A DNA stretch of 64,000 bases from a bacterium (GTDB lineage: Bacteria; Patescibacteriota; Minisyncoccia; Phycocordibacterales; UBA5272), in the NCBI GenBank assembly GCA_027482685.1, contig JAIXVU010000003.1:38065-102064 (forward strand). Reading direction: 5' to 3'. The notes under the pieces are model-generated. The model worked only from the letters and a program-made list of their open reading frames with translations, did not search any database and was not told the DNA's origin. A program made the translations under genes and the position numbers. Shown here in pieces: positions 2,141 through 59,931 of the stretch (the stretch's first letter is position 1; each line of letters starts with the position of its first letter).

Positions 2141-3256
2141 ATGAAAATCGAAAAGAAAAATCTCCCAAAATCAGAAGTCGAATTTACAGTAGCGCTCTCC
2201 CCAGAAGAACTTGAGGTGTATCGCAGCAAGGCTTTTACAAACATCCAAAAATCAGTCGAGATAGACGGTTTCCGTAAAGGTAATGTTCCAGAGGATATCA
2301 TCGTAAAACATTACGGTGATATGATTATCTTAGAAGAGATGGCGAATCTTGCACTCCGTGATGTATATATGAAGGCCATTGATGAACACAAGATCAACCC
2401 AGTTGCTGAACCAACAATTTCAGTTACTAAGCTTGCGAAAGGCAATCCTTTTGAAGTAACTATCACAGTCCCTGTATTACCTGAAGTAGTTATCCCTGAT
2501 TACAAGAAAGTTGCAATTGGTGCTACCAAGGACGAAGAGAAGGTAGAAGTTACCGAAAAAGATGTCGATGATGTTATCGAGGAGCTTCGCAAGGGCCGCG
2601 CTACACAACACAACCATGAACTCCCGCATGACCACGATCATTCACATGATGGACATGACCATCATGATCACGAGGGCCACGATCACGCACATGATCATGA
2701 AGTAAAAGAAGGTGAAGCAAAAGTAGAACCAGCCCTTCCCCCGCTTGATGATGATTTTGCAAAAAGTTTCGGCGACACCTTTACAACTGTTCAAGAGCTA
2801 AAGGCAAAAATTAAAGAAAATCTACAATTAGAAAAGGAGCAAAAAGCTCGCGAGAAGCGTCGTATGGCAATCATGGAGAAGTTGGTTGCAGAATCAAAAG
2901 CTGATCTACCAGATGCGTTAGTTGAAAGCGAACTTACAACAATGCTTGGACAGATGAAGGCTGATATTACAAAGTTTGGCGGAACGTGGGAGGACTATCT
3001 CGCTCACAGTAAAAAAACCGAAGATGAGATCAAGAAAGACTGGAGAAATGACGCAGTAAAGCGTTCTATGAGCCAGCTTATCCTACACAAGATTGCAGAA
3101 CATGAGAAGTTGCAAGCAACTGACGAAGAGATAGAAGTAGAGCTTGTAAGACTAATGGCGCAAATTCAAGATGCTGATGAGAATAGGGCAAAAGCTTACC
3201 TCTATCAAGCGCTTACCAACGAAAAGGTATTAAAGTTTTTGGAAGAAAGCAAATAA
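2141..3256 (+). CDS. tig: trigger factor (short form, with His-rich insertion)
   Basis: N-terminal ribosome-binding domain with GFRKGNVP motif; 371 aa (shorter than canonical ~430 aa); His/Asp-rich block HNHELPHDHDHSHDGHDHHDHEGHDHAHDHE. Confidence 0.8.
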   Translation: MKIEKKNLPKSEVEFTVALSPEELEVYRSKAFTNIQKSVEIDGFRKGNVPEDIIVKHYGDMIILEEMANLALRDVYMKAIDEHKINPVAEPTISVTKLAKGNPFEVTITVPVLPEVVIPDYKKVAIGATKDEEKVEVTEKDVDDVIEELRKGRATQHNHELPHDHDHSHDGHDHHDHEGHDHAHDHEVKEGEAKVEPALPPLDDDFAKSFGDTFTTVQELKAKIKENLQLEKEQKAREKRRMAIMEKLVAESKADLPDALVESELTTMLGQMKADITKFGGTWEDYLAHSKKTEDEIKKDWRNDAVKRSMSQLILHKIAEHEKLQATDEEIEVELVRLMAQIQDADENRAKAYLYQALTNEKVLKFLEESK

Positions 3257-3413
3257 CCGAGCTAGTATTTGGCGTACTCATTGTTGTATTTGTGAAAATA
3301 TTCTTCACTGTACAACTTAGTACACCTCATCATATTTTCACAAATACAACTTCGGATTCCATCCAAATACTAACTCTGCTGATGTAGCGTTTCTTATTGG
3401 GATACAAAGAACT

Positions 3414-3449
3414 AAAAGAGCGACGCCATAGGCGCCGCTCTTTTATTTT
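3414..3449. terminator. bidirectional Rho-independent terminator hairpin (GCGACGCC-ATAGG-CGCCGCTC) between convergent tig and yvcK-like genes
   Basis: GC-rich perfect stem flanked by A-run and T-run. Confidence 0.7.
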
Positions 3450-3482: not shown

Positions 3483-4499
3483 TTAATCAGGCAAAAGAAT
3501 ACTTTCTTTTGGCGTAGAAGCATTATGAATTATTTTTTGTATGACCATGCCTAGTTTATCAGAATCATGACGGATGAAACTGCGGAGGTGCGCGATACTA
3601 TCTTTTGGATTGTAGGGTGTTATATAGTGTGAGATGAGAGATTCTGTAACCATGCGAGTATCATGTGGCGTAGTGTTTTGGGTCAGCACACCATCACCTT
3701 CTTGTAACTCATACGCTTCTACCTGCTCTTTACTTGGGGCTTCGGTATTAACTAGGATGTAGTCAGCGCTTTTACCAGTATAGTTTTCTATATCTTTAAC
3801 GTAATCTGCAACAGTCCAGTTAAGTGTATGCCCCTTCTTGTTAGTTAAGTTAGGAATATAGATAATCTTTGTACTACTTTTTGCAAAGGCTTCGCGACAT
3901 CCTGTAACAATGAGGTTAGGTAGTATAGAGCAGTAATGGTTACCAGGGCCGATGATTATGTAATCAGCCTCTATGATTGCATAAGATGCATGAGGATTAA
4001 TTGTTACTGTCTCATCAAGATAAAGTTCTTGGATGGTATTTTCCTTGAAGTTCGTCTGATTAAGAGTATCTTCACCAGTTACGTTATCGCCATTACTTAA
4101 GATTGCATGAAGTGTTGCGATACAGTCAGTTATTGGTAAGACGCGACCACGAACTTTCAGAATATCACTAGCTACTTCTACCCCTTGTGTAAATGATCCT
4201 GTTACTTTTTCTAACCCGGCGAGTAGTATATTACCGAAATTATGTCCAGATAAACCTCCATCTTGGAATCTGTATGACATTAGTTTGCGTACTATCTCTT
4301 GTTGTTCTGAAAGGGCTACGAGACATTGTCGTGCATCCCCTGGAGGAAGCACTCCTAGCTCATCTCGTAATACTCCAGTTGATCCACCATCATCTGTCAT
4401 CGCAACAATAGCGGATATCTCTATATCAGGAATATTCTTAATCCCAGTGAGAAGGGTATAACTCCCCGTTCCCCCACCAATTGTCACTACTTTTTTCAT
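3483..4499 (-). CDS. YvcK/CofD-like (UPF0052, gluconeogenesis factor family) protein
   Basis: MKKVVTIGGGTGSYTLLTGIK...DDGGSTGVLRDELGVLPPGDARQC signature; start placed at internal ATG (MKKVV). Confidence 0.75.
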   Translation of the reverse strand: MKKVVTIGGGTGSYTLLTGIKNIPDIEISAIVAMTDDGGSTGVLRDELGVLPPGDARQCLVALSEQQEIVRKLMSYRFQDGGLSGHNFGNILLAGLEKVTGSFTQGVEVASDILKVRGRVLPITDCIATLHAILSNGDNVTGEDTLNQTNFKENTIQELYLDETVTINPHASYAIIEADYIIIGPGNHYCSILPNLIVTGCREAFAKSSTKIIYIPNLTNKKGHTLNWTVADYVKDIENYTGKSADYILVNTEAPSKEQVEAYELQEGDGVLTQNTTPHDTRMVTESLISHYITPYNPKDSIAHLRSFIRHDSDKLGMVIQKIIHNASTPKESILLPD

Positions 4500-5085: not shown

Positions 5086-5781
5086 TTACGCACAGGTATA
5101 CGCACAAGCGACAATAGCAGCTGTTTCAGCGCGTAATGTTGTTAACCCAAGCGAAAGTGCTCGTATATTATTAGTGGCGAAGATCTCAACTTCTGCTGGA
5201 CTCCACCCACCTTCAGGTCCAATGAATAGTCCTACAGACTCTTTACTTAACGTATGCACAACATCTTGTATACCGAAACCTCCCATTTGCAATACGTAGC
5301 AGATATCGTTTTTTGACTTATTTTGCAGGATTGTTTGTAAATTCTGTATTGGAAGAATAGTAACTCTATCTCCGCGACCGCATTGTTCTAACGCTTCACG
5401 TGCAATAGTTTCTAGTCGAGATAGGTTAAGATTCTTCTTTTCTGCTCGTTCGGTTATTACAGGCACAATCGTAGATATCCCAAGCTCAGTAGCCTTTTGA
5501 ACTACAAGCTCGAAAAGATCTTTCTTGATAACAGAAAGGTAAAGAGTTACGTTACGCTTAGGTATGATTGAAGGAGACTGCTTCGTGCGTATCAGATGGC
5601 ATGATGATGGACTAACAGATGATAATTGATAAGTAACGTCAGAGCCTTCTCCGTTAAAGAGAATAACAAAATCGCCTTGTGTATATCTAAACACTTTTAT
5701 CCACTGTTTAATTGTAGGAACATCATTTATAACAACATCTTCACCAAGGGGTTGTGATACATAGAAGCGATGTAATCGCAT
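5086..5781 (-). CDS. rsmE: 16S rRNA (uracil1498-N3)-methyltransferase RsmE
   Basis: MRLHRFYV start typical of RsmE; C-terminal LFIGPEGGWSPAEVE...LGLTTLRAETAAI SPOUT motif; start moved to ATG 5779-5781 (ORF track has N-terminal extension). Confidence 0.8.
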   Translation of the reverse strand: MRLHRFYVSQPLGEDVVINDVPTIKQWIKVFRYTQGDFVILFNGEGSDVTYQLSSVSPSSCHLIRTKQSPSIIPKRNVTLYLSVIKKDLFELVVQKATELGISTIVPVITERAEKKNLNLSRLETIAREALEQCGRGDRVTILPIQNLQTILQNKSKNDICYVLQMGGFGIQDVVHTLSKESVGLFIGPEGGWSPAEVEIFATNNIRALSLGLTTLRAETAAIVACAYTCA

Positions 5782-6274
5782 GTACTCTACACTACCGATT
5801 CCAAAAAGACATTGCAATATAATAGAAAAGACAATCTTTTTAAAATTAACCACCTGCTGTATTATTTGTAAAAGTTTTATAAAGGACTTATCCACAGTTA
5901 TCCACATAAGGACACTTGCATGTAAAAGACATTAGAGATACTATTAAGGACAGGGTAGATGACGTTAGTAAAAACGCTCACCCGTGCGTTAATCGGGCAA
6001 CTAGTTTACGCACCTCATCTACCACAATTGTTCTTTCCATCGTGGCCCACAAGTTTCTCATTAGGAGCCACCTAATATATGTTTCGCAGAGTTTTTATTC
6101 TCTATTTATAAGCTTTTAGGATGTGAAATCCCATGTAGCTATAACTCTCTTTTAAGAGACATCCCCTGCATTGTGTGTATGAACTATGTTCGTGCCTACA
6201 ATGCAGGGGATTTCTTATTTCCGAATATTGTCTTTTTAATATATAAGTACTAATCTAAGTTTGATAAACAAAAA

Positions 6275-14233: not shown

Positions 14234-14283
14234 ATTAGTTAATAGGGGATTCGCCCTACAATAGAGTTATACTATCATAAGAT

Positions 14284-44628: not shown

Positions 44629-44681
44629 TAGCACTTTTGCATCAACTAATAACTAATTACTAACAACTAACTACAACACCT

Positions 44682-45552: not shown

Positions 45553-46050
45553 ATGGATATCAAAGGTGGAACAAATCATCCCCCAATGTATCTCCGAAAT
45601 GCTCTTATGGCGGTTGATCGGGCTATCCTTGGGCTAGCTCGTAACGACTGCTATCAAGAGGGGAGGTGCTTCGAAGGGGTTCTACGTCTTCTTGCGGATA
45701 GCGATACGCTTCTAGCAGAACTTGATAGCGAAGAGAGATATCAAAAAGTTGTGGTTAAAGATGCTATCCTTCGTGCATTCCGAGCACTTCACAGAGACCA
45801 GGATCTTGTACCACGACGTGTACGGAATTTCTTAAGGAGAGAAATTGCGGCATTTGTCTGTGAAAGATTTACAAATGCACGTGATAGAGAAGTACACCCC
45901 GAGCTCTTGGCCATCCTCACCGAACTATCCTTAGACAAGCATGCACCAAGAAAATTTATTTCCCCTCCAGAAATTCATACACGTCGCAAGGATGACCTGA
46001 TTAGATTCCTTAAAGAAATGAAAGAAGCTCTCAAGCTACAGCTTACGTAA
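45553..46050 (+). CDS. hypothetical Arg-rich protein inserted between rplX and rplE (GC-richer than neighbours)
   Basis: ORF only; no recognisable motif; bounded by terminator upstream and non-coding spacer downstream. Confidence 0.4.
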   Translation: MDIKGGTNHPPMYLRNALMAVDRAILGLARNDCYQEGRCFEGVLRLLADSDTLLAELDSEERYQKVVVKDAILRAFRALHRDQDLVPRRVRNFLRREIAAFVCERFTNARDREVHPELLAILTELSLDKHAPRKFISPPEIHTRRKDDLIRFLKEMKEALKLQLT

Positions 46051-46842: not shown

Positions 46843-47118
46843 ATTGTTTATCTGCTTTGTTAAGAGAAGTTTCTCTCAGCCAGTGTACAATGGGTACGTT
46901 TCTACCGAAAACTTTCTTTCTTCACATAGCTAAAATAATTTTTGATCTTTTTGATTAAGAAGCTATATTTTCCTTTGTTCTATTGAAGTTTCAATTAGGG
47001 TAATAAAAAGAGGATGTCGCAAACATCCTCTTTTTATTTGTCATTTCTACATGAAGTAGGGAGTTTTGAAGACAGGCAACACTTGACAAGTTTATATAAA
47101 TACTGTAGGATAGGGCCC

Positions 47119-48504
47119 ATGAAAACAGGAATTAAAAACATCGTCATCGGGCTTAGTTTTTTGGGTATTTTTACTAGTTTTAGTGGTTTTGCACAAGCGG
47201 GGTATTTTAATACAACCCCAATTGAGCAGTGTGATGTTGTTATTGTAAGTAACCTATCTTTTGGTTCACGCAATCAAGATGTTCTTACTCTACAGCAGTT
47301 TCTAGCTCGCGCTGGGTACCTTCACGCTACTCCTAATGGGTACTTTGGGCATGGTACCAGATCTGCTGTACAGGCTTTTCAAGCTGACAACTACATTCGT
47401 CAGACAGGAACAGTGGGAGCTGAAACCCGTAATGCTCTAAATGAAAGACTTTGCGATGCACGGGTATCACGCTACTCATTTAACGATGATTACTATGATT
47501 ATGCGTCTGGGGTAACATATGTTGATGGATATGATCCATATGTAACTGTCGTATCTCCTACTCCTCAAATACCAGCCGTGTATGCAACTCCACAGGCAAA
47601 TATAGCAACTCGTAATACAAATGTCTCAGTTGCTACAAACAGAACTGCAGACATTACAAGTGGTTCAGTTGTCTCTCCTCTTGTTGCTTCTACTCAAACA
47701 AATTTTGGCAACCTTCCTTCTCCTGCTAGTGTTGATAGAACATCTATTGTCTTTAATCCAAGTATTGGTTATACAACTGTCATTACTCCAAAGGTGCAGT
47801 CATTAACTATCCTTACTCCGCTTTCATATACTGTATACAATGAAGGTGATACTGTGTCTCTCACATGGAGAACACAAGGACTATCACAAACACAGTTTGT
47901 AGTGCTTCTTGAAAATAAGAATACTCGTCAGAGTCGTACAGTTGCCGTTACATCTTCGATGAATGCCTCGTTTACTCTTACTAAGGATCTTCTTGATGCT
48001 GTATGTAATGGACCATGTGATGCTAATGCTCAAGCAGCATTTGGTATCGTTATTACTACTCCTGTTACTGATCTTGCGGGTACTGTAACGACTTTCAGAT
48101 CAACCCTTTCACCTATTGCAATTAAGCGTCCTTTTGCAGGGACTGGTATTGGGGCAGTATCTCTTAGTATTAAGAATCCTGTTGCTTCAAATGAAGTAGT
48201 TAAACTTTTCCTTAACTTACCTGGTATTAGTAATGTTGATGCGTATACTAACTATTCATTTAAGATTCGCGCAACATGTATTCCTGGTGTACAAGTGAGA
48301 CTAGGTGGCGTTGAATGTGGTCAAGACTTTATAATTCCAATCGGCGCTGTTTACTTCCAAAATCAAATTCCTGTAGCAATTAATAATACAACATGGTTCA
48401 GACAAGACGTTGCGTTTACCCTTACTGTTATAAATGCTCAGGGGCAAGTAGTGGGACAAGCAGAAACAAAGACTACAGTAAACGGCGCACCGTTTAGTTG
48501 GTAG
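47119..48504 (+). CDS. secreted protein with peptidoglycan-binding (PG_binding_1-like) domain and long Thr/Ser/Val-rich region
   Basis: signal peptide (IVIGLSFLGIFTSFSGFAQA); LTLQQFLARAGYL...GYFGHGTRSAVQAFQ...GTVGAETRNAL motif; terminator hairpin at 48524-48552. Confidence 0.55.
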   Translation: MKTGIKNIVIGLSFLGIFTSFSGFAQAGYFNTTPIEQCDVVIVSNLSFGSRNQDVLTLQQFLARAGYLHATPNGYFGHGTRSAVQAFQADNYIRQTGTVGAETRNALNERLCDARVSRYSFNDDYYDYASGVTYVDGYDPYVTVVSPTPQIPAVYATPQANIATRNTNVSVATNRTADITSGSVVSPLVASTQTNFGNLPSPASVDRTSIVFNPSIGYTTVITPKVQSLTILTPLSYTVYNEGDTVSLTWRTQGLSQTQFVVLLENKNTRQSRTVAVTSSMNASFTLTKDLLDAVCNGPCDANAQAAFGIVITTPVTDLAGTVTTFRSTLSPIAIKRPFAGTGIGAVSLSIKNPVASNEVVKLFLNLPGISNVDAYTNYSFKIRATCIPGVQVRLGGVECGQDFIIPIGAVYFQNQIPVAINNTTWFRQDVAFTLTVINAQGQVVGQAETKTTVNGAPFSW

Positions 48505-48565: not shown

Positions 48566-49003
48566 TTATGCAAGTGCTGTTTTAACAAGAAACATAACTG
48601 CCGTTACCGCACCAACTAGTAACGTTCCCCAAAGGATATCAACGATGACAATAGACCAAGGATATTCTTTGAATACTGCGAGATTGGTGAAGTCATAAAA
48701 TGCATATAGTACAAATCCCAGAAGCGCACCGTATAGAAATGCATTTAACGTCGTAGATGCACGAGATAGTGCAAAGACCCATATACCAAGTATTCCGACG
48801 ATATACACAAGGGGAATTGCGGGAAGGTAAGGCACAAGCGATCCTTCGACTATGTTTGCATGCGCTTTTAATCCGTCTAAGTAGAACGTTTTTGCGATTT
48901 TGGCTAGCCAGACATAGTCAAGAACAGTAAAAGTAATAATACCTGCAAGCGATGTGAGTATAATTGATATCATATATGTAAAGTGTAGCATACAAAGTAA
49001 CAT
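48566..49003 (-). CDS. DUF2177-like small membrane protein
   Basis: 4 TM segments; ORF only; start possibly at internal ATG (MISIIL). Confidence 0.45.
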   Translation of the reverse strand: MLLCMLHFTYMISIILTSLAGIITFTVLDYVWLAKIAKTFYLDGLKAHANIVEGSLVPYLPAIPLVYIVGILGIWVFALSRASTTLNAFLYGALLGFVLYAFYDFTNLAVFKEYPWSIVIVDILWGTLLVGAVTAVMFLVKTALA

Positions 49004-50798: not shown

Positions 50799-51497
50799 AT
50801 GTCAGAACCAATTATCGAAAATACAACTACTGAAGAAGTAGTCAAAACAGCAGAAACTCCTACAACGGTAGAGACAGGTAATGTTGCTGTAGCAGCTGAG
50901 CCAGAAGCTCGTCCAGTTCGTGGTGCTCGTGGTGGCCAAAACAACCGAGGAGGAAAGGGTGGTGCTCGTGGCGGACGTCCAGCACGCCCACCTCGTGAGA
51001 AGCCAGAGTTTGATAGTAAGACTATCAGTATCCGTCGTGTGACTCGTGTGGTTTCAGGTGGACGACGCTTCACTCTTTCTGTAGCACTCGTCGCTGGAGA
51101 TAGAAATGGTCGTATCGGACTAGGAACAGGAAAGGCACTCGATACTCAAGTAGCAATTGAAAAAGCTCTTAAGGCAGCAAAGCGTAATATGATTCATATT
51201 AAGCTCACGAAGACCAAGTCTCTTCCTCATGATATCGACGCGAAGTTCAAGTCAGCTCAAGTCATGATCATGCCTAATAAGGGTCGTGGTCTCATTGCTG
51301 GATCGTCAGCGCGTACAATACTTGCTCTTGCAGGGCTAAGTAATGTAACAGCGAAGTTCTATTCTGGAACAAAGAATAAACTTAATAACGCTCGCGCGAC
51401 AATGAAGGCTCTTGAGCAGATTGCGTACGCTCATAACGAGGCGCCTGTTGCAAAGGTTGCAATGCAAGATGCCCCTGTAATTACTGAAACTAACTAA
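50799..51497 (+). CDS. rpsE: 30S ribosomal protein S5 with ~65-aa RGG-rich N-terminal extension
   Basis: ISIRRVTRVVSGGRRF uS5 dsRBD start preceded by RGARGGQNNRGGKGGARGGRPARPP. Confidence 0.9.
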   Translation: MSEPIIENTTTEEVVKTAETPTTVETGNVAVAAEPEARPVRGARGGQNNRGGKGGARGGRPARPPREKPEFDSKTISIRRVTRVVSGGRRFTLSVALVAGDRNGRIGLGTGKALDTQVAIEKALKAAKRNMIHIKLTKTKSLPHDIDAKFKSAQVMIMPNKGRGLIAGSSARTILALAGLSNVTAKFYSGTKNKLNNARATMKALEQIAYAHNEAPVAKVAMQDAPVITETN

Positions 51498-51503
51498 ACG
51501 ACT

Positions 51504-52061
51504 ATGCAAATACATGAAATCAAGCGCGTACATGCGCTCAAAAAATCAAAACTTGTAGGTCGTGGTGGTAAGCGTGGTAAGACTGCAGGTAAAGGAGGTA
51601 AAGGTCAGACAGCACGTGCTGGTCACCGAGTGCGTCCTGCGATGCGTGATATTATCAAGAAGCTTCCAAAGTTGAGAGGTCATGGTAAGAACCGCGCAAA
51701 GTCAGTGTTTGATCGCGGACCAGAGGCAGTTGTTAACCTAAACGTTCTTAATGTCTTTGCAAAGGGTGATGTTGTTACACCAACTGCGCTTATTGCAAAA
51801 GGTCTCATTAAAGAAGTGATGGGTAAGACTCCAAAGGTTAAGATTCTCGGAACTGGAGACATTACAGCTGCTCTTTCATTTGAAGGGTGTGATGTATCAG
51901 CTACTGCAAAGGAGAAGATTGAGAAAGCGGGTGGCACAGTTACACAAACTGAAAAGCCAAAGACTCAGTCTCCTGAACTTCTAGCGAAGATTCAAGCAAA
52001 GCGTGATGCAAAGCTTACAAAAGCATCTAACAAAGGTGGTGCGAAGAAGGGGAAGAAGTAA
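51504..52061 (+). CDS. rplO: 50S ribosomal protein L15 (basic C-terminal extension); directly follows S5, no L30 gene
   Basis: KRGKTAGKGGKGQTARAGH motif. Confidence 0.9.
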   Translation: MQIHEIKRVHALKKSKLVGRGGKRGKTAGKGGKGQTARAGHRVRPAMRDIIKKLPKLRGHGKNRAKSVFDRGPEAVVNLNVLNVFAKGDVVTPTALIAKGLIKEVMGKTPKVKILGTGDITAALSFEGCDVSATAKEKIEKAGGTVTQTEKPKTQSPELLAKIQAKRDAKLTKASNKGGAKKGKK

Positions 52062-52124
52062 AAACTAATTACTAGTTTTTAGTAATTAGTTACTAGTGAA
52101 ATACTAAAAACAAGTTACAAAATA

Positions 52125-52156
52125 CAAAGAGCGACGCTGACAGGCGTCGCTCTTTG
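52125..52156. terminator. terminator palindrome CAAAGAGCGACGC-TGACAG-GCGTCGCTCTTTG
   Basis: 13-bp perfect stem after rplO; preceded by AACTAATTACTAG-ttttt-AGTAATTAGTT palindrome. Confidence 0.65.
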
Positions 52157-52170
52157 TTATACTCATATAC

Positions 52171-52773
52171 ATGTATTCTCTTACCAAAGACGAGCTACAA
52201 TTTTTAAAGAAACTTACTACTCCGATCAAAATCCAAGACTATCTTGATAGTATAGATTTCAATTACGAGAAGAACGGCGAGACCTGTATGTCCCCACGCC
52301 GCGTAATAAAAGAGGGTAAGGCACATTGTATAGAAGGGGCGTTGCTTGCAGCTCTTGCTCTTATGGTTAACGGTGAGCGACCACTACTTCTTAATTTGAA
52401 AGTAAGACATGATGATTATGATCATGTTGTAGCACTCTATAAATGTAACGGATATTGGGGGGCAATCAGTAAGACCGCACACTCAGTCTTGCGCTTTCGC
52501 GATCCGGTATACAAGAGTGTGCGAGAACTTGCAATGTCATATTTTCACGAGTATTTTTTGGTAAGTGGTGGTGAAAAAACCATGCTTGGGTATTCAAAGC
52601 CTATTAATCTTAAAAGATACGGAACAAGTTGGATAACAGAAGAGAAAGATCTTTGGACTATCGCAGAGAAGATATTTGATGCACCGATTACAAAAGTGAT
52701 TCCAAAGGGAAATGAAAAGTATATTAAGCCTGCGACAGAACTTGAACGGAAAGCCTCGGACATAAAAAGCTAA
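52171..52773 (+). CDS. putative transglutaminase-like/papain-fold cysteine peptidase-type protein
   Basis: GKAHCIEGALLAALALMVNG ... DYDHVVALYKCNGYWGAISK resembles Cys...His...Asp core of transglutaminase-like superfamily (eye alignment only). Confidence 0.35.
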   Translation: MYSLTKDELQFLKKLTTPIKIQDYLDSIDFNYEKNGETCMSPRRVIKEGKAHCIEGALLAALALMVNGERPLLLNLKVRHDDYDHVVALYKCNGYWGAISKTAHSVLRFRDPVYKSVRELAMSYFHEYFLVSGGEKTMLGYSKPINLKRYGTSWITEEKDLWTIAEKIFDAPITKVIPKGNEKYIKPATELERKASDIKS

Positions 52774-52793
52774 TAAGGTTATATACTACATAC

Positions 52794-53579
52794 ATGTATT
52801 TTGAATCTAGTAAAAATAACAATAGTCCAATAATTTGTAACGTGCCTCATTCCGGGACTCTGATACCAGCAGAATATGAATCTGATTTTATTCTACAGGA
52901 GGACGATTTAGAGCAAGAGATTTTGTATATGGCGGATAATTATACTGACGAGCTATACAAGGAATTATTAAATATTTCAAGTTATGTACAATCTACCGTT
53001 AGTAGAATTTTGGTTGATATAGAACGATTTGAAGATGAAGAGGATGAGCCAATGTCAAAAGTCGGCATGTCAGCTTTTTACACAATGACAAGTGAAGGTG
53101 AGCTGCTCAGAACCATTACAGATGAAAGGAGGATTGAGCTTGAGAAAATATATAAAAATTATCATGACACTTTCACTGATTTAGTTACTGTTGCGCTTTC
53201 TAATTATGATACGGCTATTATTGTAGACTGTCATTCGTTTGCATCCATCCCTAGAATATACGAAAGCGATAAAGATGGAGACCGTCCAGATATTTGTATT
53301 GGGGTAGATGAGTACCATACACCAAAAGAGTTAGTAGAAAGGCTCCAAACTAACTTTGGAGAACTCGGATATAGTGTAAAAGTTAACAGTCCTTTTGCAG
53401 GGAGTATTGTACCTGCTCTATATTATCAAAAAGATATAAGAGTGATTTCAGTGATGATTGAAGTCAATAGAAAACTCTATATAGATGAACTAACATTTCA
53501 AAAATCAAAAAATTTTTCTGAAGTCTCAAGGGCTATTTCTCGAGCGGTTATAAAAAGTTTGAACGAGTTTATAAAATAA
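52794..53579 (+). CDS. N-formylglutamate amidohydrolase (FGase) family protein
   Basis: ICNVPHSGTLIP ... IIVDCHSF signature motifs of PF05013 family. Confidence 0.55.
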   Translation: MYFESSKNNNSPIICNVPHSGTLIPAEYESDFILQEDDLEQEILYMADNYTDELYKELLNISSYVQSTVSRILVDIERFEDEEDEPMSKVGMSAFYTMTSEGELLRTITDERRIELEKIYKNYHDTFTDLVTVALSNYDTAIIVDCHSFASIPRIYESDKDGDRPDICIGVDEYHTPKELVERLQTNFGELGYSVKVNSPFAGSIVPALYYQKDIRVISVMIEVNRKLYIDELTFQKSKNFSEVSRAISRAVIKSLNEFIK

Positions 53580-53580
53580 T

Positions 53581-54043
53581 ATGGGACAAGAACAGCTATC
53601 GGGTCCAGAAAAAATATTTACGAGTGTATCCCCAAAAGAATTTATCAATCAAAGAGATAGATTGCGAGAAGATTTGTTTGCATTTCTTACCCCGCTCACA
53701 GAAGAAGATTATGTAGCAAAAAAGACAAAGTTGTTTTTATCACAGGATTTACAATCAGGTTTCGGTGTTAATCCAGATGGAGAGCTTATATCTGTATTTG
53801 CTTTAGAAAAACAAAGAGGAAGGCTTCTTGTTGCTGAGGCAAGAAATCAGGGGGGCTAAATATTTAAGTTGCATGGGTGACTATTTACTAGAGCTATATT
53901 CTGAGTTTGATTTTTCCCCAGTAGAAATTTTGAAATGGGATAACAGGTTTACCCCTAAAAATTGGAATTATGAGAGATTTGGAGCTCCAAATATTTATGA
54001 AATGAGATTAAAAAATCCTTATGCGGATAAATTTGAGGGGTAA
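53581..54043 (+). pseudogene. hypothetical gene split by frameshift in a G6 homopolymer tract (two overlapping ORFs 53581-53859 and 53828-54043)
   Basis: frame 1 ends ...NQGG* at CAGGGGGGCTAA (G-run 53850-53855); deleting one G fuses to frame 2 (AKYLSCMGDYLL...) giving a ~154-aa product. Confidence 0.5.
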
Positions 54044-54111
54044 TTTACGCGTGAATTAATTCATGTACGATAGGTGAAAAGTTCTAAAAATCGTGCTATA
54101 CTAGGGGGATT

Positions 54112-55377
54112 ATGAATACATTTAAGGCTATTTTTACTGACAAGACGCTACGTAACCGTATTTTCTTCGTTATTGGTATTTTATTACTTACTCGTGTACT
54201 TTCTTCTATTCCAATTCCTGGAATAGATATTTCTAACCTCGGAGCATTCTTACAAAATAACAGTTTCTTCGGGCTACTTAACCTGCTTTCTGGAGGAGGA
54301 ATTGCATCATTCTCTATCGTGATGCTCGGAGTTGGTCCATATATTACAGCGTCTATCATCATGCAGCTCATGACAGTACTTTCTCCTTCACTTAAGGAAA
54401 TGTATCAAGAATCAGGGGATGCTGGTCGTCGGAAGTTCGTACAGTATGGACGCCTACTATCGCTACCGTTTGCTATCCTTCAAGGGTATGCACTCCTTGT
54501 ACTTCTCTCTCGTCAAAATGTTATTCCAGAATTATCTCTTGAGCAGATGGTGTTTAACCTAACCATCATTACAGCAGGAACGATGCTTATGATGTGGCTA
54601 GGAGAGCAGATCAACGAGCGTGGTATCGGTAACGGTGTGTCGCTCATTATATTTGCTGGTATCGTAGCACTCCTTCCTCAGACACTTGGACAATTCTTCG
54701 TAACATTTGATGTGTCACAGATTCCACTTGTTGTCGGAATATTCGTATTATCACTTATTGTTACTGCAGGTATCGTGTATGTTACAGAGGCAGAACGTCC
54801 AATCCCTGTAACGTATGCTCGTCAGACACGACTAGGACAAGCTCCTGCCCTTGGGGGTCCAACAACATACCTCCCACTACGACTAAACCAAGCTGGAGTT
54901 GTGCCTATTATCTTCGCAGTATCAATCCTTCTTTTCCCACAGTTAATAGGACAGCTGTTTGCAACATCATCAAATGACTTACTTCGTAGTCTTGCTAGTA
55001 GTATGAATGAAATACTTGCTAACCAGTGGATATATGGAGCAATTTATTTCTTCCTTGTTGTAACATTTACGTATTTCTATACAGCGGTGATGTTTGACCC
55101 AGAGAAGACAGCGGATAACCTACAGAAAAATGGCGCATTTATCCCGGGTCACAGACCAGGAGGAGCAACGGCAGAATACATCGGATATGTGCTTGCACGT
55201 GTGACTCTCATTGGTGCTATTTTCCTTGGATCCGTTGCAGTGTTGCCGATTATCGTACAAGGTATAACAGGGATTAGCGCGATTCAAATCGGAGGAACAT
55301 CACTTTTGATTGCGGTGTCAGTGATACTGGATGTAATTAAGAAGATTGACGCTCAACTCTCCATGCGTGAGTATTAG
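54112..55377 (+). CDS. secY: preprotein translocase subunit SecY
   Basis: 10 TM architecture, GIMPYITASIIMQL-like motif (GVGPYITASIIMQLM). Confidence 0.93.
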   Translation: MNTFKAIFTDKTLRNRIFFVIGILLLTRVLSSIPIPGIDISNLGAFLQNNSFFGLLNLLSGGGIASFSIVMLGVGPYITASIIMQLMTVLSPSLKEMYQESGDAGRRKFVQYGRLLSLPFAILQGYALLVLLSRQNVIPELSLEQMVFNLTIITAGTMLMMWLGEQINERGIGNGVSLIIFAGIVALLPQTLGQFFVTFDVSQIPLVVGIFVLSLIVTAGIVYVTEAERPIPVTYARQTRLGQAPALGGPTTYLPLRLNQAGVVPIIFAVSILLFPQLIGQLFATSSNDLLRSLASSMNEILANQWIYGAIYFFLVVTFTYFYTAVMFDPEKTADNLQKNGAFIPGHRPGGATAEYIGYVLARVTLIGAIFLGSVAVLPIIVQGITGISAIQIGGTSLLIAVSVILDVIKKIDAQLSMREY

Positions 55378-55733
55378 TCATAAAAGATTTCATCTACTGT
55401 GTTAAAAAAGTTTTTGCTCCCGCAATGTACGTCAAAGTACATCTTGGTTGCAAAAACTTTTTTGCCTTGTATCTAAAACCTTTTCTGATCAATACCATAA
55501 AAATTACTTCAGTCCACTCTTATCCAGCGGAAGTTTTTTTGAGGAAGAAGTACTAAAACGTACGGTGGCCTACAAAAACTTCCGCTCTTCGTGTATCTAA
55601 AGCAATTTTTATACTATTCCGGAGACCCATGCCTCATATTTCATCAAATATCTTCACGTAGTAATACAAATAGAAAAGCATAGCTCTGATAATTCTTTAG
55701 AGCGGTACTTGTAGTGTATGGTATTATATATCT

Positions 55734-57204: not shown

Positions 57205-59931
57205 ATGAATTCTACATTTAGTACCCCCGAAGAAGAGATAGCATTTTTACGTAGTCAAATATCTACAAAGATAGAAAAGTCAAAAGGTTTTGAGGGGCGA
57301 TTTAATGAAACTGATCACGCGCGCGAAGTTATTCGTGATTATAAAGAGACGAAGCTTGAACAAGTTATTCCTGTTGCTTCCCAGATCACAGAAGGTGAGA
57401 AGCATCGCTTGCTTGAGTGGCTCGCGCCCAAGGATACTGATCAGCAAGTGAGCATGCTATCACAGATTGCTGCAGAGAAAGGACTCAAAAATGCTTTTTC
57501 TGTTGCGGAGAATTTAAATGATCCACAGGTAGAAGACGATTTTGATAGATTTCTCGTACAGTATCTCATCTCAGGTCATGAGTTTAAGAATGATCTTTCA
57601 AAAGATGAATGGAAAGCGCTACATATGAAGCTCTTTGAAGTGATACTTCCAACCGCTCTTGAGGGTCAGGTCAAACAAGCAAAAGAGATGATGGCTCTTA
57701 TGGAACAGTGGTATGCGTCCATGCAAGCACTCGCTAGTGATGCGTCTAACAAGGAGAAAAATTATTATTCTCTTGAGCTAAGTGTTTCTAACAATACTAC
57801 CGTGACGTCATTTTATTGTGCGGTGCATGTGGACTATGCAGCGTTATTTGAAAAAGTTGTACTTGGAGTATTCCCAACTGCAAAAGTTATAGAGCAAAAA
57901 GAAGATTATAATATATTCCATAATCACGCTATAACAGCAGCATCATATGCTGTACCATCTACCCATCCATCGCTTCCGATTACAACATACAACGAAGTAG
58001 AGGGCGACCCGATGGCGCTCATCATTTCATCATTTATTAAAATAGCAAAGGATAAGGAAGGTCTCGCACTTCAGATACTTATCCGTCCATCAGGTGATGT
58101 GTTTGCCCGTAAATACGGTGAGATGTTAGAAGACCTTCGTAAAGGTGAGACATTTAAGCGTGTTGTTGATAAACAAAGCTTTGTTAAAGAGGCATTCTTT
58201 CAAATAGGGGAAGCGCTCTTTTCTAGTCCAAAAAAAGATGACGATACTGCACATAAAGAGGAAAAGAAAACTACGTTTATGGACGAAAACGCTACAAAGT
58301 TCGTCCAAGAGAAATTATCTAAGACTATCCTTGAGGCCAATATCAGAATAGTGGCATCTGCTGAGTCGTTACCAAGAGTGCAAAAGATACGAGATGACTT
58401 AGAAGCATCGTTTGCACAATTTACTAAAGTCCACGGTAATAGCATCACCTGGAAAGAGGTAGAAGGGAATAAACAAAAGGCACTACTTCACCGTTTCTCA
58501 TATCGTCTCTGGAATGATGATGAGAGTTACCCGCTTAACGTCGCAGAACTTGCTTCTCTCTTCCATTTCCCAATGTTATCTAAGGATGTTGCGAACGTGA
58601 AAGAGCAGACATATACTAAGAGCCCAGCGCCTATCGACCTCTCGCCAAACGGTATTTTACTTGGTGTTAATACTACTCGTGGGGAGGCAACAGAGATACA
58701 CTATGATAGAGAGGATCGTGTGCGTCATATGTATGTTATCGGACAGACAGGAACTGGTAAGACAGTGCTCTTGAAGAATATGATTGTCCAAGATATCAAA
58801 AATGGTGACGGTTGTTGTTTCATCGATCCGCATGGTAGCGATATTGAAGATATTTTGGCAAATATTCCACCAGAACGTGCCGGAGATGTTATCTATTTTG
58901 ACCCGTCATATATGCCACGACCGATGGGGCTTAATATGCTTGAGTATGATAGAACTAAACCTGAAACAAAAACGTTTGTTGTTAACGAGCTCTTGGGTAT
59001 TTTTGATAAGTTATTTGATATGAAGACCTCCGGCGGTCCAGGGTTTGAGCAATACTTCCGTAACGCAACACTTCTTGTGATGGAGCACCCAGAATCGGGT
59101 AATACACTCCTTGAGATTGCCCGTATTTTTTCTGATAAAGATTTTAGAGACTATAAGTTATCAAAATGTAAGAATCCTCTCATCCTACAATTCTGGCAAA
59201 ATGCTGAGAAGACATCAGGTGATCAAGGTCTACAAAATTGGACACAGTATGTTAACAGTAAGTTCGATGTCTTTCTCTCAAATGATATTATGCGTCCAGT
59301 TATCGCACAGGAGCGTAGTGCGTTTAACTTCCGAGAGATTATGGATACTAAGAAAATACTTTTAGTTAATCTTGCGAAAGGGCGGTTGGGAGATAAGAAC
59401 GCAGAGCTACTCGGCCTCATCATTGTTGGTAAGTTTTCTCAAGCCGCACTTTCTCGTGTTGATCAGCCGGATGTTAGCAAGCGACCAGACTTCTATCTCT
59501 ACATAGATGAGTTCCAGAATGTTACAACACCAGCAATTGCAAGCATTTTATCAGAAGCACGTAAGTACCGACTTTCCCTTAACATTGCGCACCAGTACAT
59601 CTCGCAGTTAACAGAGGATATTAAAGGTGCTGTGTTTGGTAACGTTGGATCTATGGCAGTATTTCGTATATCGCCAGAGGATGCGCAGTACCTTGAGTCT
59701 AAGTTCGCTCCGACATTTACAGCATCAGATATTATGAAAATAGAGAATAGACATGCGTATCTAAGCCTCCTTGCCAATGGTACCCCGAGGAAACCTTTTG
59801 ATATTGACGTGCTCCCACCACCAAAAGGAGAGATTGCGCGTATCAGTCAGCTTAAGGAGTTAAGTTATCTTACTTATGGTCGCCCAGCAGATGAGGTGAA
59901 CGAAGAAATCATGAGAAAGTATAATATGTAG
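57205..59931 (+). CDS. large soluble protein: ~480-aa unknown N-terminal region + HerA/TraD/VirD4-like (DUF87-type) P-loop ATPase domain
   Basis: Walker A YVIGQTGTGKTVLLKNMI, Walker B FYLYIDEFQNV, CFIDPHGSD; no N-terminal TM helices. Confidence 0.6.
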   Translation: MNSTFSTPEEEIAFLRSQISTKIEKSKGFEGRFNETDHAREVIRDYKETKLEQVIPVASQITEGEKHRLLEWLAPKDTDQQVSMLSQIAAEKGLKNAFSVAENLNDPQVEDDFDRFLVQYLISGHEFKNDLSKDEWKALHMKLFEVILPTALEGQVKQAKEMMALMEQWYASMQALASDASNKEKNYYSLELSVSNNTTVTSFYCAVHVDYAALFEKVVLGVFPTAKVIEQKEDYNIFHNHAITAASYAVPSTHPSLPITTYNEVEGDPMALIISSFIKIAKDKEGLALQILIRPSGDVFARKYGEMLEDLRKGETFKRVVDKQSFVKEAFFQIGEALFSSPKKDDDTAHKEEKKTTFMDENATKFVQEKLSKTILEANIRIVASAESLPRVQKIRDDLEASFAQFTKVHGNSITWKEVEGNKQKALLHRFSYRLWNDDESYPLNVAELASLFHFPMLSKDVANVKEQTYTKSPAPIDLSPNGILLGVNTTRGEATEIHYDREDRVRHMYVIGQTGTGKTVLLKNMIVQDIKNGDGCCFIDPHGSDIEDILANIPPERAGDVIYFDPSYMPRPMGLNMLEYDRTKPETKTFVVNELLGIFDKLFDMKTSGGPGFEQYFRNATLLVMEHPESGNTLLEIARIFSDKDFRDYKLSKCKNPLILQFWQNAEKTSGDQGLQNWTQYVNSKFDVFLSNDIMRPVIAQERSAFNFREIMDTKKILLVNLAKGRLGDKNAELLGLIIVGKFSQAALSRVDQPDVSKRPDFYLYIDEFQNVTTPAIASILSEARKYRLSLNIAHQYISQLTEDIKGAVFGNVGSMAVFRISPEDAQYLESKFAPTFTASDIMKIENRHAYLSLLANGTPRKPFDIDVLPPPKGEIARISQLKELSYLTYGRPADEVNEEIMRKYNM

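Follow-up and report, generated by a model that had tools for sequence, protein, structure and literature searches.

Gene Organization Between rplO and secY

The genes rplO and secY of the spc operon are normally adjacent. In the 64,000-nt stretch of contig JAIXVU010000003.1 analyzed here, from a member of the Patescibacteriota (hereafter, the window), they are separated by 2,050 nt, and the open reading frame (ORF) listing and the sequence show this interval to be filled by three plus-strand genes: gene 1, coding for a cysteine protease of the CPR-C4 family; gene 2, coding for a protein of the N-formylglutamate amidohydrolase (FGase) family; and gene 3, a frameshifted gene whose repaired product is a putative acyltransferase with a predicted GNAT fold (Table 1). 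An initial annotation of the same sequence had pointed to the gap of about 2 kb, which was confirmed with both borders identified by Pfam, and its coordinates for the three genes and for a hairpin downstream of rplO agree with the ORF listing and the sequence. It had also read the insert as a peptide-modification or tagging neighborhood coupled in expression to the ribosomal operon. The comparisons reported here lead us to another view: the insert probably consists of two evolutionary layers, a CPR-C4 gene and a separate module made up of the FGase gene and gene 3, and not of one three-gene system.

Table 1. Features located between and including rplO and secY (window coordinates; L numbers designate loci of relatives).
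Feature	Position	Strand	Description
rplO (uL15)	51504-52061	+	185 aa; upstream border of the insert; Pfam Ribosomal_L27A, 1.3e-14, residues 77-147
Hairpin 3' of rplO	52124-52157	+	14-15 bp, 100% complementary; -26.3 kcal/mol, z = -6.99; terminator-like
TATACT box (-10-like)	52158-52163	+	7 nt before the ATG of gene 1
Gene 1	52171-52773	+	200 aa, apparently intact; CPR-C4-family cysteine protease, vasohibin/transglutaminase-like fold
FGase-gene 3 cargo segment	52754-54084	+	No DNA counterpart in L093/L095 (CPR-C4 present, FGase absent)
TATACT box	52782-52787	+	6 nt before the ATG of gene 2; homologous junction in L222
Gene 2	52794-53579	+	261 aa, intact; FGase-family (PF05013) protein of zinc-amidohydrolase fold, not a HutG ortholog
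Gene 3	53581-54043	+	Overlapping ORFs 53581-53859 and 53828-54043; predicted divergent GNAT fold, phage polyvalent-protein type (phrog_2563)
G6 run with +1 G insertion breaking gene 3	53850-53855	+	0-frame stop at 53857-53859
secY promoter-like site	54074-54102	+	GTGAAA-17-TG-TATACT
secY	54112-55377	+	Downstream border of the insert; Pfam SecY, 3.9e-101

The CPR-C4 Protease Gene

Gene 1 matched the crystallized CPR-C4 protein (PDB 7OB6/7PJO) over residues 4-198 of its 200 residues (E 4.5e-57 by phmmer, 7OB6_A). In the alignment the Cys-His-Leu(carbonyl) triad is represented by C53, H85, and L107, the nearby Ser (S100) is also present, and the first Asp of the Zn site, as read off the alignment, is apparently Asn in gene 1. 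Pfam DUF553 was matched by the N-terminal half only, just above the cut-off (20.7 versus 20.5 bits; E 2.9e-4). Judged by its sequence, gene 1 is a member of this known, crystallized family, and the match to 7OB6 and the conserved triad support its earlier description as a transglutaminase-like, more precisely vasohibin-type, cysteine peptidase. Protease activity has been demonstrated for the crystallized homolog on a casein substrate. The paper describing CPR-C4 states that gene position across the family gives no functional clue, and it does not report the position between rplO and secY found here.

A scan of GTDB species genomes returned at least 567 homologs of CPR-C4, in Patescibacteria and DPANN archaea, and the neighborhoods of the best 80 of these loci (46-67% identity) were surveyed over 6 kb around the gene. 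At none of these 80 other loci were rplO, secY, an FGase gene, or gene 3 found within 6 kb. The positions of CPR-C4 in the 80 genomes were unrelated, and no conserved partner emerged, the commonest neighbor family being present at 11 of the 80 loci; this accords with the published statement, and neighborhoods are uninformative in both data sets. CPR-C4 probably acts separately, as a specific vasohibin-like peptidase on an acidic substrate. It is the only structurally characterized protease family specific to the candidate phyla radiation (CPR), and in one lineage it has a conserved position directly before secY, at a break of the spc operon.

The Locus in Related Genomes

The closest SecY sequences were 82-84% identical to that of the window, and rplO of the relatives was 83-88% identical to the window gene. 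Several arrangements were found. A CPR-C4 gene alone separates rplO from secY in L095 and L096 (82% identical to gene 1). In L228 an 86-aa product is encoded between rplO and CPR-C4 (72%), which is followed by secY, and in L093 and L094 an uncharacterized 232-aa gene lies between CPR-C4 (81%) and secY. In L227, CPR-C4 (70%) is followed by minus-strand methyltransferase and UCP032817-like genes, a duplicate of the 3' part of CPR-C4, and secY. L222 has the order rplO, CPR-C4 (81.5%), FGase (66%), and secY; no trace of gene 3 was found in this locus, where the FGase ORF runs into the promoter region of secY. Finally, rplO and secY are directly adjacent in L097, whose SecY is 81% identical to that of the window. 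Since the relatives other than L097 keep a CPR-C4 gene before secY, 70-82% identical to gene 1, with varying cargo or none, the placement of CPR-C4 in front of secY is a trait of this lineage, and what lies between the two genes varies. The slot downstream of CPR-C4 is a recurrent landing site for accessory cargo.

Two of these loci carry further details at the slot. In L227, the duplicate at 3300-3419 corresponds to the 3' end of CPR-C4 (residues 159-198, 47% identical) and stands directly before secY, downstream of the two minus-strand genes; it looks like the footprint of an insertion at the 3' end of CPR-C4. In L093, the 232-aa cargo gene, whose product has no Pfam match, is accompanied by 19-nt inverted repeats (3051-3069 and 3876-3894, 84% complementary).

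In the window the cargo is the segment carrying FGase and gene 3. In blastn comparisons with L095 and L093, homology breaks off at 52753-52754 and returns at 54084-54087, so that the segment starts about 20 nt before the stop codon of CPR-C4 and ends 28 nt before the secY ATG. Its GC content is 0.34-0.35, versus 0.42-0.45 in the flanking genes. No convincing target-site duplications or terminal inverted repeats were found around it, the short repeats present being at chance level, and no second copy of FGase or gene 3 was found elsewhere in the window. The window and L222 share the junction between CPR-C4 and FGase, including the TATATACT box, which suggests that FGase and gene 3 were inserted once and that gene 3 was then lost twice independently, through the frameshift in the window and through deletion in the sister lineage L222, while FGase remained intact both times.

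The FGase-Family Amidohydrolase

Gene 2 matched Pfam PF05013 almost from end to end (profile positions 1-218 of 219; 155.4 bits, cut-off 28.9; 3.1e-45), and the motifs VPHSG...P and DCHS are present. Its AlphaFold 2 (AF2) model had a mean predicted local distance difference test (pLDDT) value of 94, and Foldseek aligned it with 2Q7S (E 4.8e-18, template modeling score (TM) 0.80) and with 2ODF (TM 0.72). All 31 residues that are invariant among 35 aligned homologs are kept, including H19, D75, E77, R78, D145, H147, and E223. The assignment to the N-formylglutamate amidohydrolase family made in the initial annotation was thus upheld by the profile match, the fold, and the motifs, and the likeness to characterized members (HutG; 2Q7S, 2ODF) extends over the full length and the motifs H-x-G, D-x-E-R, D-C-H-S, and E-x-N-R.

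A HutG function was considered for gene 2 and rejected on its TIGR02017 score, 66 bits against an equivalog cut-off of 278.75, and on gene contexts. Gene 2 lies among CPR-C4, gene 3, and secY, and elsewhere the family occurs near DsbB, RecG, and phage methylases, not near histidine-utilization genes. Because of this score far below the HutG cut-off and the lack of histidine-utilization neighbors, N-formylglutamate from histidine catabolism is an unlikely substrate. Unlike HutG, FGases of the window type occur together with a GNAT-fold gene, in CPR genomes and on phage-like contigs, and the subfamily is routinely mis-annotated as a histidine-catabolism enzyme. The FGase fold is also near those of phage poly-gamma-glutamate hydrolase and of Amidase_3 cell-wall amidases. 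A scan of viral contigs with gene 2 alone gave no close relatives.

Gene 3: Frameshift and Predicted Fold

Gene 3 is interrupted by a homopolymer frameshift, as had been noted initially. Removal of one G from the G6 run gave a 153-aa product that aligned end to end with 47 intact homologs of 152-158 aa at about 70% identity. At the break site the intact homologs read CAA GGG GCG or CAA GGT GCG, and therefore the break in the window is a +1 G insertion. For deviations at conserved columns, the window gene ranked 16 of 33. With this negative result of a test for relaxed constraint, the idea of an old pseudogene was rejected; since, apart from this break, gene 3 matches its intact homologs in conservation, its frameshift appears to be recent or partly bypassed.

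Two other explanations of the G6 run were weighed. One is that the run serves for recoding or phase variation, whether through +1 slipping of the ribosome on G GGG GG, slippage in transcription, or reversible slipped-strand mutation; gene 3 would then be no pseudogene, and its full-length protein would be made at a low or switchable level. The conservation of the rest of the gene and the presence of the same G6 in three assemblies are consistent with this, a +1 slip of tRNA-Gly on GGG-G restores the family sequence N-Q-G-A-K-Y-L, and throttled expression would be sensible for a toxic enzyme. However, the intact homologs are uninterrupted and have no G run at this site, so there is no conserved recoding signal; no stop or rare codon occupies the A site, and the stop comes two codons after the slip codon, unlike in the prfB type; G6 is short for phase variation; and the sister lineage deleted gene 3 outright. 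Recoding or phase variation is thus decidedly unlikely. A homopolymer error of sequencing or assembly, with gene 3 intact in the organism, is very improbable: errors in homopolymer length are a known artifact and the gene has no other decay, but the frameshifted DNA is 100% identical over 3.5-7 kb in the Logan assemblies of SRR16126875 and SRR16126878 (the runs may share one study, so that a systematic error is possible), and the 92-aa truncated product is likewise found on the 123-kb contig deposited at NCBI.

Searches of Pfam, NCBIfam, PDB (sequence and profile), and PADLOC gave no match for gene 3, and Pfam gave none for 33 of its homologs either. An AF2 model of the repaired protein, built from the 33 homologs, had a pLDDT of 82. 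All 15 PDB structures matching it at E<=1e-3 were GNATs, with TM values of 0.42-0.57 (0.53-0.57 for the top matches, E about 2e-4). Among BFVD models, phage large polyvalent proteins aligned at TM 0.72-0.80, and phage proteins annotated as N-acetyltransferases were also among the matches. In PHROGs, gene 3 matched phrog_2563, labeled "unknown function," at 2.4e-15, and hhalign against one canonical GNAT gave a weak probability of 29% in the correct register. On the basis of the model, the repaired gene 3 product is a putative acyltransferase of GNAT fold. A further observation concerns C97 (motif L-S/D-C), which is invariant in the cellular gene-3 family and is replaced by His (L-D-H) in FGase-paired versions on viral contigs of 220-370 kb (L128, L139/L205, and L140). 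Because Cys and His are exchanged at this one position, a catalytic or ligand-binding residue is suggested there.

An exhaustive search with a hidden Markov model of gene 3 returned 2,797 representative proteins, 852 of them below 1e-10 and many of them large. According to Pfam, the domain is fused in them to Phage_Mu_F (P0169, P0176, P0219, P0228, P0242, and P0256), Phage_portal (P0177, P0201, and P0228), Phage_min_cap2, ART-PolyVal (P0221 and P0230), or LPD22 (P0273 and P0298). This evidence of fusion comes from homologs, gene 3 of the window being a solo gene. Among GenBank phages the domain was present in 154 records, 148 of them from Streptomyces phages, mostly annotated as "acetyltransferase"; in these phages it shares an early region with an Ocr-like gene, and in Microbacterium phages it is found inside a "minor capsid protein." GNAT domains located beside ART domains in polyvalent proteins, and also occurring as solo versions, have been described previously (Iyer et al., J Bacteriol 2017, PMC5512222). 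The gene-3 domain resembles these in its occurrence both within giant MuF, portal, ART-PolyVal, and LPD22 proteins and as solo genes. It differs in being missed by canonical GNAT models and in its FGase partner, which is not mentioned there (the words "amidohydrolase," "FGase," and "formylglutamate" have 0 occurrences).

Association of FGase and Gene 3

An FGase gene coding for 261 aa was found directly upstream of an intact gene 3, abutting or overlapping it, in three CPR contexts unrelated to one another: downstream of DsbB/SecDF, downstream of RecG, and close to PolA. Gene-3 loci were surveyed in 44 viral and 80 metagenome cases. FGase adjoined solo gene 3 in 9 of 14 evaluable metagenome cases and in 3 of 17 viral-contig cases, versus 1 of 35 fused forms. 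Three arrangements of the pair occur: FGase followed by gene 3 with overlap, which is the commonest, gene 3 followed by FGase, and convergent genes. The association was seen down to gene-3 identities of about 30%, and the loci include IMG/VR contigs of 220-370 kb as well as high-GC contigs. No family other than FGase and gene 3 was present at every one of the 15 pair loci compared; no third conserved gene, and no shared transporter or further pathway gene, was found in the 15. No fusion of FGase with gene 3 was found among representatives of 350-520 aa, which were MuF fusions or unannotated instead. These results establish FGase and gene 3 as a self-contained, mobile two-gene module.

On viral contigs, the neighbors of the pair include DNA methylases, an S-AdoMet lyase, a GmrSD_N-HNH protein, a GIY-YIG protein, and a ClpX-like ATPase. 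FGases at 43% identity that lack gene 3 lie beside type IV secretion system genes or beside helix-turn-helix/ImmA genes. In the metagenome locus L150 a canonical GNAT gene (Acetyltransf_1, 4.6e-10; 5480-5977) stands between the gene-3 homolog and a convergent FGase.

No CPR-C4 gene was found at pair loci outside the lineage of the window. The initial annotation had asked whether the trio is conserved as a unit and always sits before secY: the position before secY holds for CPR-C4, within this lineage only, and the unit does not, FGase and gene 3 being absent within 6 kb at the 80 other CPR-C4 loci, and CPR-C4 from the pair loci outside the lineage. The trio as such was found in this genome alone, the sister locus L222 having CPR-C4 and FGase, which comes close to the random insertion that the initial annotation had itself set against its proposal. 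We found no description in the literature of an FGase associated with this GNAT-fold domain. The link between FGase and a polyvalent-type GNAT-fold domain and the cargo slot between CPR-C4 and secY are modestly new, the individual families being known, and the pairing gives a concrete, testable partner for both the phrog_2563 domain and this FGase subfamily.

Transcriptional Organization

The hairpin downstream of rplO has homologs in L093, L095, and L222, with a compensatory change in L095; its U tail is weak on the plus strand. Gene 1, gene 2, and secY each have their own TATACT box 6-10 nt before the ATG, and the -10 box of secY is kept before this gene in all relatives examined. The pattern TATACT-N6-10-ATG was matched 13 times in the window versus 4.5 expected, a number that none of 100 shuffles reached; 10 of the 13 have their ATG within an ORF of >=80 aa, and for 8 of the 13 it is the first start codon. 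The enrichment of the pattern and its coincidence, in most cases, with ORF starts suggest that leaderless or near-leaderless transcription units are widespread in this organism; examples across the window are located at 14268, 15932, 36289, 52158, 52782, 54097, 57191, and 60712.

Because a hairpin follows rplO and TATACT boxes precede gene 1, gene 2, and secY, the inserted genes are probably transcribed on their own and not with the ribosomal operon. The boundary between rplO and secY in this clade is probably an operon break, with independent and probably leaderless units on its downstream side. Gene 3 starts 1 nt past the stop codon of gene 2 and has no box of its own, and is therefore predicted to be co-expressed with FGase. 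The coupling of the insert to expression of the ribosomal operon, as first proposed, is unlikely in view of the strong hairpin, the separate boxes, and the other insertions in the spc cluster described at the end of this report.

An AT-rich, partly palindromic motif, AACTAATTACTAGT, was also noticed. It has 10 copies with <=2 mismatches in the window versus 1.2 expected (at 62, 30843, 44644-44664, 52063-52097, and 62116); one site is 3' of rplO, and in L093 and L095 the motif is located just upstream of secY in the opposite orientation.

Interpretation of the FGase-Gene 3 Module

In the history that we favor, a CPR-C4 gene would have come to sit between rplO and secY in a small Paceibacteria-like lineage, and a mobile pair of FGase and GNAT-fold genes would have landed in the slot between CPR-C4 and secY. 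As to the function of the pair, we tentatively propose that it is a writer/eraser conflict module. The gene-3 protein would be an acyl-transfer effector that acylates an amine on a cellular target, of the kind that phages carry on MuF and portal proteins and inject, and FGase would be the matching amide hydrolase, which removes or pre-empts this modification; such a toxin/antidote-like module would decay by losing the harmful writer first. Several findings fit this proposal: the overlapping order with FGase first is the commonest, the module is mobile, its viral neighbors are of conflict type, and the presumed harmful gene was lost first. That the window holds a conflict-type pair whose acyltransferase is being lost can be held with low to moderate confidence. 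The repeated loss of the acyltransferase with retention of the hydrolase gives a direction for toxicity-and-rescue work.

Enzymatic toxin-antidote pairs are known in DarT-DarG and Tre1-Tri1, and TacT/AtaT/KacT belong to GNAT toxin-antitoxin systems. The pair resembles them in being a mobile, self-contained two-gene module in which the putative antidote usually comes first and overlaps the next gene and in which the putative toxin is lost first. It differs in that the putative antidote is an FGase-fold hydrolase, not a macrodomain or a binder of the ribbon-helix-helix (RHH)/DUF1778 type, and in its convergent arrangements and lack of a PADLOC match. Nor does it conform to type II GNAT toxin-antitoxin systems (TacAT/AtaRT/KacAT), as gene 3 has no Acetyltransf match and the gene upstream is FGase, not RHH/DUF1778.

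A number of points weigh against the reading put forward here, in one or another of its parts. The single shared insertion is suggested by the homologous junction, and FGase identity between the window and L222 is only 66%. Pairing is not obligatory: many solo gene-3 genes lack an FGase, and the FGases at 43% identity lack gene 3. PADLOC-DB 2.0 gave no system match for gene 1 or gene 3 and only a spurious one (0.015) for gene 2. The GNAT assignment comes from the fold of a structural model (TM 0.53-0.57) and from a profile match of low probability, Pfam and PDB sequence matches being absent, and the pyrophosphate-binding Q/RxxGxG/A loop (motif A) is about 3 residues shorter than in a canonical GNAT, only R79-G80 being conserved. 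Since the window gene shows no decay beyond the frameshift (rank 16/33), it may still be expressed through slippage. Transcriptional autonomy was read from sequence alone, and read-through from rplO may occur. Convergent arrangements are atypical of toxin-antitoxin operons. Finally, neither the gene-3 family nor this FGase subfamily has a known biochemical activity.

The main alternative to a writer/eraser pair, which we regard as somewhat unlikely, is a sequential deacylase-acyltransferase route, in which the amidohydrolase would cleave off an N-acyl or gamma-glutamyl group and the GNAT-fold enzyme would re-acylate the amine set free, phages using the two steps to remodel a molecule of the host or the virus. 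Pathways of the cell envelope and of thiol cofactors often combine a deacylase with an acyltransferase, and the nearness of the FGase fold to poly-gamma-glutamate hydrolase and Amidase_3, the canonical GNAT gene between both genes in L150, and the convergent arrangements, which fit independently regulated enzymes, all agree with such a route. However, the gene-3 domain occurs mostly without FGase, as a virion-associated effector domain; two lineages that lost gene 3 kept an intact FGase, which would not be expected of enzymes that only work jointly; and no transporter or additional pathway gene is common to the pair loci. A more specific form of the writer/eraser reading, that phages deliver the acyltransferase on MuF, portal, or polyvalent virion proteins and that FGase reverses the acylation, would make the pair an undescribed phage-CPR module and the orphan FGase of the window and L222 an immunity enzyme; we consider this unlikely.

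There remains the reading with which the locus had been introduced, in which the three genes would make up a single system for peptide modification or tagging, its place in the superoperon coupling its expression to the translation machinery. Peptide-tagging/amidoligase neighborhoods, reportedly described by Iyer and co-workers in 2009, are said to combine transglutaminase-like peptidases with FGase-type amidohydrolases and to be defined by an ATP-grasp or glutamine synthetase (GS)-like ligase. No ATP-grasp, GS-like, or other amidoligase gene is present in the insert, where CPR-C4, FGase, and the GNAT-fold gene are the only genes between rplO and secY; the defining ligase is thus absent, and peptidase and amidohydrolase are unlinked in other genomes, the partner of FGase being gene 3. 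Although the three genes share a strand and are closely spaced, CPR-C4 resembles vasohibins, which trim a protein C-terminus, and CPR-C4 and FGase occur together at this site in two lineages (window and L222), the single-system model is extremely improbable and largely refuted by the neighborhood survey, given the 80 other CPR-C4 loci without FGase or gene 3, the pair loci outside the lineage without CPR-C4, the missing amidoligase, the relatives that keep CPR-C4 with other cargo or none, and the hairpin after rplO with a -10-like box for each unit. A new ribosome-coupled protein-tagging system, which the locus suggests at face value, is therefore unsupported.

Other Features of the spc Cluster

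Other genes are inserted in the same cluster, and therefore the position in a ribosomal cluster is not special to the three genes. A 165-aa ORF without Pfam match lies between rplX and rplE (45553-46050), and a gene for a 496-aa PG_binding_1 protein (47014-48504) is found together with a minus-strand gene for a DUF2177 membrane protein (48566-49003) between rplE and rpsH. The genes infA/rpmJ normally follow map; here, map is directly followed by a gene for a 908-aa protein like TrwB/TraG-type coupling proteins (57205-59931; DUF8128 in the precomputed annotation), and this TraG-like gene keeps its position in L093, L095, L097, and L222. The product of rpsE (50799-51497) has an N-terminal low-complexity extension of about 65 aa, rich in Gly, Arg, and Pro, and that of rplO has a Lys-rich C-terminal extension of about 40 aa; the gap between the two genes is 6 nt, so that there is no rpmD (L30) gene between them. 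The spacer between secY and adk (55378-55733), about 350 nt and non-coding in the window, holds small genes in relatives (137 aa in L095, 206 aa in L097, and 325 aa in L227), and is a second variable slot in the same cluster.

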